A stretch of 64,000 nucleotides of DNA from a virus (lineage: Duplodnaviria; Heunggongvirae; Uroviricota; Caudoviricetes). The stretch's first letter is position 1; each line of letters begins with the position of its first letter. The stretch lies in the IMG/VR virus record IMGVR_UViG_2718218360_000002. The stretch is one strand, 5' to 3'. A program made the position numbers. Below are positions 12,001 to 18,000 of the stretch, in pieces.

Positions 12001-15000
12001 GGTGCCAAAACGTTCATCAAATACCCTGAGAGGGGCCGCTTTCTGTTTCAGCGTGTTGAGTTTGATCTCGCCGTTTTCATATCTTTCCTGTTGAATTTTT
12101 CTGTAATTATTCAGAAAAATGGTAACGGTTGATGAACCGCCGGTATCACTAATAATTTTCTCCTGCAGACTGAGCATTTGTTCCATTTGCTGCCGGGCAA
12201 GACGGCTGTTCGCTTCTGCTGCAATAGTTTCTGCCAGTTTCTGGTCAATACTGCCGAGACCGTGATTTTTGCCTGTTATGGGATGCCTGTAACGCCAGTA
12301 AACTTTGTTATTTCTTTTGTCAAAATACGGAGATAATCCCGGAACATCGGTTTTATATTTTCGCGGGCGCGCCATCTTCCAGTATCCTCTTCAAAGCAGG
12401 GTGATCTGTGGCGATCACCTCCGGCTTGTTTACCATTCCGACAAAGCGAGCTTGCGGATCCACTCGCCAGCGTCTTCCAACTTTTTTGGGGAGAGGAAAT
12501 ATCATTCCGGCTTTAGCGTATTTACTTAACGTACTCGGAGTAGGGACCGGTTCACTGAATTCCTCTTTTGCCCACTCAGTGAGCAGAATAAGTCTTGCCA
12601 TGAGCGTCGTTCGCTAATCATGGTCGCCGCCACTATAGCTGGTGGGCAACGACCGGGGTTGAACATTAAAAATCAGCCTGATTCGGGATCAGTTTTTGCC
12701 AGATAGCTGAAACGTATTTTGCCTGGTAACGAGCGTCATCCAGCGCATTGTGGCGCTCACCTTCGAATGGGATAGCAGTTCTGGCATCGAAGTCTATGGC
12801 TTTCCCCAGCTCAACGATTGTGCGTACATCGCGATCGTTGTAGTAACGCCACGGGCAGGGGATCCCCTGCCGTTCGTATGAACGGCGCAAAATCGTGTTG
12901 TCGAAGTTGGCTCCATTTCCCCAGACCTGAACAAAAAATTCACCGGAGTTTTCGTCGATAAATTCCCGCAATTGTAACAGTGCATCATCTAACGGGATTT
13001 CATCGGTCATAATGGCAGATTGCGCTTCGCGTGATTGCTTAAGCCACCATTTAATGGTGTCCCGATCAATGACTCCGCCAGCAGTTTCCAGATCGATAGT
13101 CTTACTAAATTCCGGTCCCATATCTCCGGTTTGCGGATCGAAAAATATTGCACCTATTGAGATAATCGGGGCATCAGGATTTTTTCCCATGGTTTCAAGG
13201 TCGATCATTAGATGGTCACACGTCCTGCTGGTGGATGTGATAATGCGATGACCGTTCACCGTAATTAAGGGATCTGCCGTCTCGCCAGTTTCACTATCGC
13301 TGGCGTGGTCCTGAGCGCTGCCAGCATTCTCCTTGTGTGGATGTTCAGCGCCTTCCATTTTCTCCGAATCGTCTTCCTGAACTTCAACCAGGTTCTTGTC
13401 ATCGAATGTTTCCTGGTATGTTGCGTCGCCCATCACCGCGCCACAATCAGGGCAGTTGCCGCCACTCCTCTGACCGCAGGCGGTGCAGATCTTTTCCGGT
13501 TCCTGTTGCACTACTGGTTCAGGTTGTTTCGTTTCTGGCTCGTTTTGTTGCGTATTTGGGCTGTTCTGTTCCGCTTTCTGGTCGTTCTGTTCCGTTTCTG
13601 GCTGATTCTGGTACACAGAATCGCGGGTCTGGATCCCCTTAATCCATTTCGGATCATTCGGGTCGCTAATCCCTTCAACAAATTCTCCGCGAGAGGCAGC
13701 CAGTAATTTGTCTGCATCGACAGGATTTTGGGGCGGAATGTTTTTCCGGGCTTCATGGAGTTCTGCCCGCAGTTTCTGATATTTCGCATCAACAGAATTT
13801 ATCTGTGGCTGAGCATCCATCGACTGCGTGTCCTGATTATGTTCAGTTGTATCCGGTTCCACTGCTTCAGTCGTTGCCTGTTCATCTGCCATTGCGCCAG
13901 ATGGCTGCGGTTTTTCTTCATCATCCTGTTTTCCTTCTTTTGTTACACGCTGCGGCATTGGAGCAGAGGAGCGACCGCAGGCAATATCCACGATTTCTGG
14001 ATCAGGGTTGGCATGGTCGGTTTCGGTCAGTACTTTGTTCAGATATTCGGTAACACGGTGGGGAGTAGCCTCGATACCAATTGGTGCTTCTTTCACGGAC
14101 GCAACCACTATCGCGCGGGAATAATCCAGGTGACCAGGCATGGCGATGAATTTGTCACGAAAAACAGAAAAGGGCGGCTTATTCTCTGAAACGATTTCTT
14201 CAATGCGTTTGGCGTGTGCCGGATGTGGATTGTAAATATCGATGTCCATTGAACGGGCCAGAACGCCAGCGGCAACGTCACGTTCCACTGACGCATCATC
14301 GTGGACAAAACCTTCACCGCGATCGGTAAGAATTCCTCCGCCAGCATTAGCGCCGGATGGCGTGCGGCTGATGCGTAAAACACGATTTCCTTTCATCCAC
14401 TCTTTTGTCAGCAGACCTCGATCGGTATAGTCAGCGTCCAGGTATGCTTCGAAAAAAGCAGTCATTAACCCCAGACTGGAATTAACGGGATTAGGGAAAA
14501 CTTTGTCTGTGTCGCGTACCAGTTTGTGAAGGTCGCGAATCTCCAGCGGGTCGAGCAGCTTTGTGTTGTGGGAAATAGCCAGGGCAGTAACAGCAGGCAG
14601 TTCTTCAGCTCGTGCGATATGTAATGCCTGAAGTTCTTCCCGTGAAACGTGCGTTACCGGTTTTTCGCTGCCATGTTGCGCAAGCCAGCGAATGGGCAGT
14701 TCCTGACCGGAAATCGGCAGGAGCATATTATCCTCAATCTCAGCCATGTCTTCGCCATTGACGTTGGTATTGTCAGTGCTGGCTGGTTTGTCCTGAACTG
14801 AGGGGGAAGGCGCTATAAATATCATTGTGATGCCATCTTCTCCGCCTTTTTCATAGCGGTTGCAGAATTCAGTATCGAACACACCTTCAGGCGGCAGGTC
14901 ATTAACAATGGGCAAATTCACGCGAACAGGTTTTTTGAAATCCTCTTCGTCAAATCCAGCATCGTCCATTGCGACAACACCCCGTGATATTGCAACCGAT

Positions 15001-18000
15001 AATTTTTTTGCTGTGCGCCAGTAAAAACCGCCTTTAATCCCAAGGCGTTTTCTGACTTTGTCATTTTTGGCTTCGTAATACAGTGCAATTTCTTCTTTAT
15101 CAGTGCTCATTGATAAACCTCATAACTATTTTAAGGTTGTACGAATCCCTGCTATTGCTGGCATGCTTAATCAACGGGTATGGCGTTAATACGGCTGGCG
15201 GGTTATCCAGCCGGTATTTCGTTATTCAGGTACAGCGATACTTTGTTTAACGGGAGACATTCACCGGAAATTTTTTGCTCGTCTCTTGCCTGATGGCAGG
15301 ATTCTTTACTGGCATAAATTCCGGTAATCACATTCTGTGGCTCACCTGTTATAAGAAAAACCGTCATCATCAGTGCAAACGCTGAACTCACTGCTGCCCT
15401 CCGAAAATGCCAAGTTCAAGAAGGGCAATTCTGGAGAGTATGGAATTATCATTGAGAAGATAAGGCTCATATTTTCTCATCCTGATGGCGTCTTCAGTAA
15501 ACTCCCGGTTACTGAGCAGAATACCAATATTAAAACACCCTTCAGACGTATTAACGTTTGGTAGTGACGTTTCCATTATCGCGTCCTCAACAATGAATTT
15601 TGTGATGCGGTGCCTGGTGCCTCCAGGTGACGTTAACCAGTTAACAATTAACGCCGGATACAGAGAATCCACCCATAACACTGTTTTTGGTTTTAACTGT
15701 TCCGCGTGCGCTCAGCCGCATTCACCACATCACAAAATTCACTTTAAAAAGGGCGGCAGAGCAGTCACGGAGTAAAACTGATACCGCCAAACGTCACCAG
15801 AAAATTGATAACAGAGGGCGTTGCAGCGGGGTTGTCACTTAAGCGTATGGTCAGCCTGACAACCCGGTGTCCTCAAGGGGAAGGAATAACCCCGCCATAC
15901 TTACCGCCGCGCCATTTCGCGGATTGCCACAACCAGAAGCGCACGGTCGAAGAAATTTAACGGCAAGACTTATATGCAAAGGGATCTCGCCGTGCGCTTT
16001 CGTGTTATGCCCTGACTTTTCAGGGTAAATTAACCTGTGGAAACCTGTTTTTACTGGCGCTAATCAGTTAGCGTTTCTGGCTAACCAGCGATGCGCGGCA
16101 GCTTCGGTTTTAAACGTTTTACTTTTGGTATACGTCATCGCGGTAAACGTGCCGTCCTGATTGGGAAACACGCCACATACCAGAGATTCGTTGTTGCCAA
16201 GATTGAGCGTATCCATGTTGACCTCATTTGCCCTTAACGCCGGGGGGGGCGGAACTAAGACCTGTCGCACCGTTGTGCTTTGATGGGATATATTGTTCTC
16301 TTAAGATGAACATATGTCAACATTGTGAATGCGCAAGAGGCAAAAAAAACCGCCTTCCGGCGGTATTGTTTTGTAAAATAAAGAATTATTTTTGTCGCGT
16401 TATTGGGTCAACGTATTCTGAGTAAAATTCGGTCAGTTTTTGAAGGCGCATTTGAAAAGCTGCCAGCATATTTCTACGCTCTACAGGTGGCAGGTTTCTG
16501 TAAACATCAAGCAGGGCTTTCTCATCATCATCAAGCGCCTCTCTGTTTGTATCTTCTTTTCCTGTCAGTAGCCAGGAAAGGGAAACATTTGTCGCTTCTG
16601 CAATTTTGGCTGCGGAATCTTTACTGATTGTCCCTCTTTTTTTCCAGGCGTTGACTGATGAGCGTCCTACACCAGCGATGCGCGCTAAATCTGAACCGCT
16701 TAAATGATGCTGTTGCGAGATCGTATCTAACCTTTCTGCCAGCGGGGTGTCGTATTGCTTTTTTCTCATGTCCATTTAGCAATTATAACCGTTCAGTGAA
16801 CACTAACAATTCCTCGTAGTGTTGACTTATGTTCTCTTTAAGTGAACAATGTTGTGGCTGATTGAATTGGAGGTTGTATGACAGCATTGGACAAGGCAAT
16901 AAAGATTGCTGGTGGTATTCGTCCGCTAGGGCGTGCAATAGGGGCTTGGCCGTCTCAAATACACAAATGGGCAAATGAATACAATGGTCGAGTGCCGACA
17001 GGGGAGCGGGTTCGTCAAATTTATATTGCAACTGGGGTGACTCCTCATGAATTGCGACCAGATTTATATCCGAATCCAACCGACGGGTTGCCTGCTGGAG
17101 ATAAGGCTAACACACAAAATACACCGGAGTTGATTCATGAAAATCAAGCATGAACACATCCGCATGGCGATGAATGCCTGGGCGCGTCCTGATGGCGAAA
17201 AAGTTCCAGCAGCTGGAATAACCCAGGCTTATTTTGAGTTGGGTATGACGTTCCCAGAACTGTATGACGACAGCCATCCGGAAGCCCTGGCTCGCAATAC
17301 CCAGAAAATTTTCCGCTGGGTAGAGAAAGACACCCCTGATGCTGTTGAAAAAATGCAGGCTCTGTTACCGGCGATCGAAAAGGCGATGCCGCCTTTGCTG
17401 GTGGCCCGTATGCGCAGCCACAGTTCTGAATATTACCGTGAGATCGTCGAACGGAGGGATCGGCTGGTGAAGGATGTCGATGATTTTGTTGCGTCAGCGG
17501 TTGTTTTGTATGACCAGATGAATCGCGGCGGCCCGGCAGGGAATGCTGTGGTGATGCACTAAAAGCACGGTGTTCGGGGGTTTTATGAGCAGCAAGCTTC
17601 ATGGTCTTGTCTGGGAAGGGTGCGCCTTCACCGGCATGATCTTATCCAGGGTGGCGGTTATGGCCCGTCTTGCAGACTACAGCAATGACGAGGGCGTGTC
17701 ATGGCCTGCCATTGAAACTATCCGGCGTCAGATCGGTGCAAGAAGTGAATCCACAGTGAAATCGGCTATTGCAGAACTGGCGAAAGAGGGCTGGCTGACG
17801 AAGGAAGAGCGTAAGGTCGGTGGGCGTAACGTAAGCAATATCTATCGGCTTAATGTGGAAAAACTTGAAGCAGCTGCAGCGGCGGCGCGTGAGGCATATA
17901 AACCAAAAAGAAAAATTAGCCAGGCAAAAAATGACCCGTCAAATATTGCCCCCTCAACGGTTGGCCCGTCAAATGTTGATGGATCAACTGTTGATAAAAA

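Follow-up and report, generated by a model that had tools for sequence, protein, structure and literature searches.

Gene and domain organization

The stretch examined here (referred to as the window) comprises 64,000 nucleotides of the IMG/VR virus record IMGVR_UViG_2718218360_000002. It is 100% identical to chromosomes of Escherichia coli O157:H7 and carries a dicB-type lambdoid prophage with the local gene order int-xis-exo-ydfD-dicB-DicF. The subject of this report is exo, a leftward gene whose product of 814 amino acids is a mosaic of three parts: a RecE-family scaffold, the linker of RecE together with its zinc ribbon, and a DEDDh exonuclease head of the DexA/Rv2179c type. Based on sequence comparison, exo is best described as a recE gene that carries a DEDDh head in place of the PD-(D/E)XK one, the switch falling at a domain boundary.

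The coding sequence coincides exactly with one annotated by the Prokaryotic Genome Annotation Pipeline (PGAP) as "exonuclease" in E. coli O157:H7 FRIK2455 (WP_000102181.1; DNA identity 100%). An open reading frame (ORF) of 814 codons with two Pfam domains and a ratio of nonsynonymous to synonymous substitution (dN/dS) of about 0.2 is far beyond chance, and exo is a real gene. An inspection of the DNA made earlier without database searches (the sequence-only reading) had described a gene of this length at this place, encoding a DEDD nuclease domain preceded by an acidic linker and a Cys4 motif; all of these were present. It had also assigned the gene to the recE/recT slot between xis and the dicB operon. 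The position was right, as judged by the PGAP, Pfam and Rfam neighbours, but the occupant is the head-swapped recE and not an unrelated gene.

The DEDDh head

The C-terminal domain of the exo product matched Pfam family PF16473 (Rv2179c-like 3'-5' exoribonuclease) over profile positions 2-177 of 177, with E=2e-67 and 226.7 bits against a cutoff of 27. The full catalytic set was identified: D637 and E639 (Exo I, DxE) within DLETMG (residues 637-642), D737 (Exo II, NxxxD) within NGANFD (residues 732-737), and H787 and D792 (Exo III, Hx4D) within HNALDDARY (residues 787-795). These residues align with D7, E9, D119, H186 and D191 of T4 DexA. The DexA catalytic residues are as named in PMC12153337, where a figure legend prints E12; by sequence the Exo I glutamate of DexA is at position 9. 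Since the DEDDh set is complete, 3'-to-5' polarity is expected from what is established for the superfamily.

T4 DexA (8KEL/8KEN, E=1.6e-6) was the only solved structure found in a search of PDB sequences. BLASTP revealed no similarity between the head and the PD-(D/E)XK domain of RecE, in agreement with the sequence-only reading, which had called the domain DnaQ-like. The score of the exo product against PF00929 (RNase_T), 21.5 bits, was below the cutoff of 24.

The RecE-derived region, linker and Cys4 ribbon

Residues 1-617 matched positions 1-603 of the 877-position NCBIfam model NF007259 (exodeoxyribonuclease VIII equivalog) with 1094 bits, below the equivalog cutoff of 1269. By BLASTP the first 57 or so residues differ from RecE of the Rac prophage, while residues 58-617 are 75% identical to its residues 50-592, a relationship which the sequence-only reading had missed; past residue 592 of RecE no similarity was seen. 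As this identity spans both the linker and the ribbon, these are features inherited from RecE and not accessories of the DEDD domain. The linker is rich in D+E (18.8%), Q+N (21%) and P (10.9%) at residues 401-538, and D+E rises to 25% at residues 561-632. The ribbon reads CTACGQ...CPDCG at residues 542-557; its counterpart in Rac RecE reads CNACGQTGGDNCPDCG.

The ribbon was found in five of 85 representatives of the family defined by the RecE N-terminal region (RecE-N) and in four of 15 loci with fused genes, and is confined to the Escherichia lineage. Being restricted to this clade, it cannot be essential to the family. The motif C..CG..GGxCPDCGxVxGDATY also occurs, nearly verbatim, at the extreme C-terminus of a 326-residue Dam-like DNA methyltransferase, the gene for which lies just downstream of an EcD-like exonuclease gene on three IMG/VR contigs (in one of them at 4465-5445, minus strand). 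To judge from these sequences, the ribbon looks like a small mobile module common to phage DNA-metabolism proteins.

An AlphaFold2 model based on a 29-sequence alignment gave a mean predicted local distance difference test score (pLDDT) of 83.2 for residues 1-389, with an alpha/beta domain (about residues 1-100) followed by two helical domains. Disorder was predicted from about residue 390, pLDDT being 39-44 for residues 390-420. A single-sequence model of residues 1-420 was unusable (pLDDT 31.5), and the alignment-based model was used instead. No structural relative of the scaffold was found, either with Foldseek in the PDB (nothing at E<1) or in BFVD, and a sequence profile of the N-terminal region had no match among PDB sequences. 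The function of this region of RecE has been described as unknown (PMC11611040). The best-conserved motif of the RecE-N alignment, KEWxxGNRxxxIxRTxxGxNAxGGxxTDR, corresponds to residues 236-264 (about 14319-14405, minus strand). It overlaps a low-confidence loop of the model (residues 256-260), through which the scaffold might bind or catalyse.

The exchange point and the mosaic family

With blastn, window positions 13264-14772 were 83.5% identical to Rac recE over 1.5 kb, and the homology ended sharply at 13264. This corresponds to about residue 616 of the exo product and about residue 591 of RecE. The swap point lies 13 residues before the only part of RecE that has been crystallised, residues 605-866 (PDB 3H4R). 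The gene order in Rac is recE-recT-ralR-rcbA-xisR-intR. Since recT, ralR and rcbA stand there between recE and xis, and here xis follows the stop codon of exo, the exchange also removed those three genes.

RecE-N defines a narrow family, with 185 representatives at E<=1e-3 among 1.84 billion. Members of at least 450 residues carried as C-terminal heads PD-(D/E)XK (about 25), DEDDh (about 15), in-frame RecT (three) or one of two groups without a Pfam match. In the three RecT cases RecT follows in-frame either directly or after a nuclease-domain fragment; these could be natural recE-recT deletion fusions, or artefacts of assembly or gene calling. The first of the two groups without a Pfam match comprises nine representatives with a head of about 270 residues and the motif DGEAQKKSLTDAMKKALSLLGFSADIYLG, for which PHROGs gives "exonuclease" (phrog_2489/7838). 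The best Pfam match of this head was Rad52_Rad22 at E=0.029, below the cutoff, and PDB sequences gave none. It may be a Rad52/Sak-like annealase on a RecE scaffold, a lead resting on a sub-threshold match. The second is a group of 18 tails (phrog_26058 at the C-terminus), to which no Pfam family was matched.

Variation was also found at the other end of the gene. DEDDh forms of 823 residues in ST131, E. albertii and E. ruysiae have unrelated first residues (about 280), and the ydfE pseudogene of the K-12 prophage Qin is a remnant of this N-terminal module. The possibility that YdfE is a remnant of a PF06630-type N-terminus like that of exo was considered and rejected, as YdfE matches the module of the 823-residue forms instead. 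On sequence grounds the gene family is thus mosaic at both ends.

Among E. coli and E. albertii variants, synonymous divergence (dS) was 0.06-0.12 in the head (12666-13259) and ranged from 0.4 to saturation in the linker and N-terminus (13260-15110). Because it is so much lower in the head, this comparison suggests that the head segment was recently spread or homogenised by recombination among prophages.

Prophage context

The coordinates of exo, its segments and its neighbours are collected in Table 1. The gene is flanked by xis and int on one side and by the ydfD-like DUF1482 gene, dicB and DicF on the other. Strains CFT073 and ST131 maintain the synteny int-xis-exo-ydfD-dicB-ydfC-ydfB-ydfA-repressor. 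In a consensus scan, which is pattern matching only, no sigma-70-like site was found on the exo strand between exo and dicB; the nearest one lies upstream of the DUF1391 gene, DicF, dicB, ydfD and exo, and the next at 16809-16782. From gene order and these pattern matches, and by reference to the dicA/dicB operon of K-12 Qin, we infer that exo forms the distal end of a dicB (pL-like) operon which, like that of Qin, is repressed in the lysogen.

Table 1. Features of the exo locus and of the surrounding prophage (positions in the window).
Feature	Position	Strand	Evidence or remark
RecE-N::DEDDh chimeric exonuclease gene (exo)	12666..15110	-	Complete ORF of 814 aa, with its stop codon
Predicted DEDDh 3'-5' exonuclease head (Rv2179c/DexA family), aa 633-804	12699..13214	-	Pfam PF16473
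Acidic, Q/N- and P-rich low-complexity linker, aa 390-632	13215..13943	-	Composition; predicted disorder in the modelled part
Cys4 zinc-ribbon-like motif, aa 542-557, within the linker	13440..13487	-	Weak Pfam DZR match, E=0.068
Segment homologous to Rac RecE 50-592, aa 58-617	13260..14939	-	BLASTP, 560 aa aligned at 75% identity
Folded N-terminal region, aa 1-389 (RecE-family scaffold)	13944..15110	-	AlphaFold2 model
Pfam PF06630 Exonuc_VIII, aa 56-189	14544..14945	-	E=4.2e-34; 118.6 bits (cutoff 25)
Integrase gene, end of leftward operon	11245..12375	-	PGAP annotation
xis (excisionase), directly downstream of exo	12353..12601	-	PGAP; position taken by recT in Rac
ydfD-like DUF1482 gene, directly upstream of exo, probably in the same operon	15203..15391	-	Pfam PF07358, E=1.8e-14; PGAP
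dicB (cell-division inhibitor)	15388..15576	-	Pfam DicB, E=3e-33; PGAP
DicF small RNA	15751..15802	-	Rfam RF00039, 76.7 bits (gathering score 48)
Nearest sigma-70-like promoter on the exo strand (TTGACA-17-AACAAT; putative)	16292..16320	-	Consensus scan, pattern match only
sok antitoxin RNA (adjoins hokD)	22233..22407	+	Rfam
STnc100	27334..27534	+	Rfam
AgvB	27537..27598	-	Rfam

Several observations were made on the remainder of the prophage and window. A remnant of ompW was found at the integrase end (about 11074-11199) and a truncated ydfJ at the tail-fibre end (about 41853-43136). As these fragments represent two different attachment loci, the prophage looks hybrid or rearranged. It is also defective, the PGAP annotation showing a frameshifted portal gene and an internal stop in a DUF968 gene. 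Rfam matches above the gathering score were DicF, sok, STnc100 and the anti-GcvB small RNA AgvB. Upstream of the prophage, window positions 1-10000 are an effector and insertion sequence island with nleA, nleG, espM1 and a DUF1076 gene, together with ISEc8/IS66 and fragments of IS630, IS256 and IS3; its G+C content swings between 0.34 and 0.60.

Distribution, selection and nomenclature

Of 5426 complete E. coli genomes, 4052 (75%) contained the DNA of the head at a coverage of at least 80%; it occurred at 8150 places in all, with up to seven copies in a single genome. The segment with the RecE nuclease and recT was found in 1728 E. coli genomes, as against the 4052 with the DEDDh head, and the whole exo gene in the arrangement of the window in 1251 genomes. 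Pairwise comparison with the CFT073 and ST131 homologues by the Nei-Gojobori method gave dN/dS values of 0.11-0.24 in the head and of 0.2 in the N-terminal region; exo is maintained by purifying selection and is not decaying. With up to seven copies in O157:H7, the DEDDh head is one of the commonest prophage enzymes without an assigned role.

The gene and its domain architecture are already in the databases; the sequence-only reading had missed both how extremely common exo is and the labels that RefSeq already gives it. Names in RefSeq and GenBank vary ("exonuclease", "3'-5' exonuclease", "3'-5' exoribonuclease domain-containing protein"), and some given to homologues are misleading ("RecE family exodeoxyribonuclease", "exodeoxyribonuclease VIII"). 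In a homologue search with residues 1-420, the best 120 matches were all 100%-identical partial fragments from E. coli, inconsistently named. Thousands of entries carry RecE-type names although they lack the RecE catalytic domain and RecT, and surveys which count prophage recombination systems by name therefore overcount RecET. No paper on the RecE-N::DEDDh architecture was found in the literature searched (RecE/DEDDh/prophage topic and Pfam accessions).

Search for an annealase partner

The annotation of the whole prophage contains no gene for RecT, Redbeta, Erf, Sak or Sak4. Nor did Pfam reveal an annealase among ten ORFs of the early region, where DUF1482, DicB, DUF1391, DUF1627, DUF977, DUF551 and an HTH/DnaD-like protein were found. 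The statement in the sequence-only reading that no bet-, recT- or erf-like partner is present was thus upheld. Two outcomes that it had named as contrary to its view, placement of the C-terminus in the RecE family by profile search and a recombinase nearby, were both looked for with negative results.

The search was extended to 80 related loci, for which each species was represented by one genome and 10 kb of flanking DNA was taken on either side. Among 78 loci sorted by type, 15 carried fused genes (676-828 residues) and 63 standalone genes (about 182-240 residues). Within these flanks, none of the 80 loci gave a tblastn match to RecT, Redbeta, lambda Exo, the RecE nuclease domain or Gam. Erf was matched at four loci and SSB at about 12. 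These loci all have the standalone form, and neither protein was matched at any of the 15 fused loci. Pfam analysis of 141 upstream ORFs, two per locus, identified Sak4-like AAA_24 in six, ERF in three and Rad52_Rad22 in three. In phage Bas106 the standalone homologue lies inside a block of Erf, SSB, HNH endonuclease, exonuclease and Abc2 genes. The head family is thus loosely associated with recombination modules, and the 15 fused loci examined have no adjacent annealase. A partner may act in trans; Rac-type recE-recT is present as well in some O157 genomes.

Proposed function

With moderate confidence, the exo product is considered to be a 3'-end DNA exonuclease built on a RecE scaffold which acts during lytic development without an annealase. 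It would be made only on derepression of the dicB operon, and would then attack the 3' ends of DNA with a metal-dependent 3'-to-5' exonuclease activity, trimming or degrading 3' tails and linear DNA ends in the replication and recombination phase of the phage. T4 DexA, which takes part in double-strand-break repair and host-DNA breakdown, offers a parallel. The scaffold would give the head the same targeting or assembly function as in RecE, and the protein would not be a resection enzyme of the Red/RecET type. Processing of DNA ends had been one of the roles suggested by the sequence-only reading, and it is the best-supported one; counter-defence, which had been suggested beside it, gained no support from the computations.

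A DNA context is indicated by several findings. Among the 1.84 billion representatives, the RecE-N scaffold carries PD-(D/E)XK heads, DEDDh heads and in-frame RecT; standalone homologues of the head are encoded in early-left operons of temperate phages, in part inside recombination modules such as that of Bas106; Sak4-like, ERF and Rad52 matches occurred among the upstream ORFs; and DexA and EcD, the only characterised PF16473 relatives with readable substrate data, digest DNA.

Several points weigh against this proposal. The Pfam family is named after an exoribonuclease, Rv2179c of Mycobacterium tuberculosis, and an RNA substrate is compatible with the data. In annealase pathways the general effect of a 3'-5' exonuclease is anti-recombinogenic, since the 3' tails are destroyed, and it is thus not obvious that exo would promote recombination. 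About 80% of the standalone homologues have no recognisable annealase in the two upstream genes. As the function of the RecE N-terminus is itself unassigned, "targeting" by the scaffold is best taken as a placeholder, and the promoter scan is consensus matching only. Finally, no enzymatic, expression or genetic data on any RecE-N::DEDDh fusion were found in the literature searched.

The main rival explanation, which we hold to be somewhat unlikely, is that exo encodes a nuclease for prophage exclusion or defence. Such an enzyme could digest the DNA of superinfecting phages (for example the cytosine-modified DNA of T-even phages) as EcD does, or could trim RNA phages in the manner of the TONDO exonucleases, with RecE-N as an auxiliary domain. 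EcD of E. coli ("HREX"; Kang et al., Nucleic Acids Research 2025, PMC12153337) digests T4 DNA and protects the cell from T4; it digests DNA with 5-hydroxymethylcytosine (5hmC) but not unmodified double-stranded DNA, while DexA handles both. EcD belongs to the same Pfam family as the exo head and occurs on viral contigs. The TONDOs are ISG20-like DEDDh exonucleases with unrelated auxiliary domains, borne on prophages and plasmids, which block RNA phages (PMC13344964, a 2026 preprint), and the wide, multi-copy occurrence of the head in E. coli would also suit defence. In the study of EcD, however, recognition of 5hmC was tied to W152 and D169 of DexA (PMC12153337), and these are not kept in the exo head, where W152 is replaced by Tyr and the D169 loop is missing; D90 is retained. 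For the TONDO form, the sub-cutoff score against RNase_T is unfavourable. The position of exo tells against defence in either form: it lies deep in a repressed dicB/pL-type operon, has no separate promoter-like site, and stands at the position in which recET of Rac is silent. This is a poor site for a defence gene that must act in the lysogen. PADLOC gave only a weak, generic Cas-associated DEDDh match (E=1.7e-5), which was not counted as evidence for defence.

Counter-defence is considered improbable. Here the exonuclease would destroy a host immune nucleic acid during lytic growth, such as retron multicopy single-stranded DNA (msDNA), the cDNA of defence-associated reverse transcriptases (DRT) or a linear oligonucleotide signal. 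The early lytic operon also carries the host-takeover genes dicB and DicF, and the standalone homologue of Bas106 adjoins abc2, an anti-RecBCD gene, both of which might fit such a role. No homology to described anti-defence proteins was found in the searches made, however, and no paper linking the family to counter-defence in the literature searched. Exonucleases require a free 3' end, which rules out cyclic signals, and the nearest experimental precedent, EcD, would by analogy point to defence and not counter-defence.

Equally doubtful is a role directed at RNA, in which the exo product would resemble Rv2179c, the founding member of the family, and work as a 3'-5' exoribonuclease on RNA of the host or the phage, for instance in the turnover of mRNA or small RNAs during induction. 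The best Pfam match is the Rv2179c-like domain, and RefSeq often names homologues "3'-5' exoribonuclease", but the scaffold and the neighbours are DNA-metabolism proteins, and DexA and EcD of the same family are DNA exonucleases. That exo is a genuine RecE of RecET-type recombination, as GenBank phage records and NCBI names (exodeoxyribonuclease VIII, RecE family) and the RecE-like N-terminal 617 residues would have it, is refuted by the domain analysis (no PD-(D/E)XK domain, a sub-cutoff NF007259 score and no recT). Nor is exo a decaying remnant of RecE: its ORF is intact, its catalytic residues are complete, dN/dS is near 0.2, and 75% of the complete E. coli genomes have the head.

Beyond the proposed 3'-end DNA exonuclease, a broader and more tentative idea is that RecE-N is a modular carrier which brings interchangeable DNA-processing heads to one common target. 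We regard it as possible and not as probable. The occurrence on one scaffold of nuclease heads with opposite polarities, and in some members of annealases, suggests that its function does not depend on the head and lies, for example, in targeting or assembly. The heads seen on it are PD-(D/E)XK, DEDDh, RecT, possibly a Rad52-like annealase, and a further head without a Pfam match. If the idea were true, the DEDDh version, the commonest in E. coli, would work without an annealase, and its role would be new for a lambdoid early gene, for example in destroying 3' ends of competing or host linear DNA or in phage exclusion during induction. Full-length RecE, and not the nuclease domain alone, boosts linear-linear recombination, which is the basis of efficient direct cloning. 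The binding target of the scaffold, once worked out, would explain this advantage, and the natural chimeras are available for testing a head-independent role of the 600-residue N-terminal region of RecE.

Comparison with known systems

Rac RecE of K-12, the partner of RecT, occupies the same slot in the leftward early operon and shares with the exo product the PF06630 domain, the acidic and Q-rich linker and the Cys4 ribbon. Unlike exo, it has a 5'-3' PD-(D/E)XK catalytic domain and is followed by recT, ralR and rcbA. Compared with RecE/exodeoxyribonuclease VIII as a class, exo has the N-terminal region, but it falls below the equivalog cutoff and lacks both the PD-(D/E)XK domain and an adjacent recT. 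The head, with its full-length profile match and its Exo I, II and III motifs, belongs with the DEDDh family PF16473.

Lambda Red (Exo/Beta/Gam) and other two-component recombinases are encoded at the equivalent position of the lambdoid early-left operon. Lambda Exo has a different fold and a polarity opposite to that expected for the exo head; neither an annealase nor Gam was found at the exo locus. A two-component phage recombinase combines a 5'-3' exonuclease and an annealing protein in one module, and exo does not have this constitution.

T4 DexA is in the same Pfam family as the exo head and has the same five DEDDh residues, and it is likewise the product of a phage early gene, acting on DNA 3' ends (T4 annotation; PMC12153337). 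It differs in being a standalone protein of 227 residues with extra loops and no RecE-type N-terminal region, and its identity to the head is 26%.

The closest relative with a published phenotype is EcD. Its sequence was rebuilt from the published cloning primers (189 residues, beginning MIDTET, with Ala78) and matched a protein on IMG/VR viral contigs (six uncultivated virus genomes, UViGs). Given this location, the EcD gene probably belongs to a phage or prophage and not to the chromosome of the host. Identity to the exo head is 37% over 180 residues. Each of the heads collected is 34-42% identical to EcD, which is placed as a sister clade to them. EcD is standalone and has Ala at the position of DexA D90 and Trp at that of W152, where the exo head has Asp and Tyr. 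Tetramer formation was tied to S87 and D90 of DexA, and loss of D90 (Ala78 in EcD) was linked to a dimeric, host-safe form (PMC12153337). In an alignment-dependent and not structural comparison, the exo head has kept Asp at D90 and has Pro at S87, while the D169 loop is deleted or unalignable. Membership of the exo head in the HREX class is not supported by these residues, though a related activity could be present.

A further group for comparison is formed by the standalone exonucleases encoded in the pL operons of temperate Enterobacterales phages. Homologues of the head in the early-left operons of these phages are 48-65% identical to it, Bas106 gp31 and the PhiR46_1 exonuclease being at 53-59%. 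They share the operon position of exo, often as the last gene before xis/int, and differ from it in their size (182-240 residues) and in having no RecE scaffold (63 of 78 loci). Some of them adjoin Erf, Sak4-like or Rad52-type annealases, or SSB. The PhiR46_1 exonuclease also has the short extension at the N-terminus which makes up the fusion junction in exo. As a whole, exo is not a new kind of system: both of its halves come from known families.

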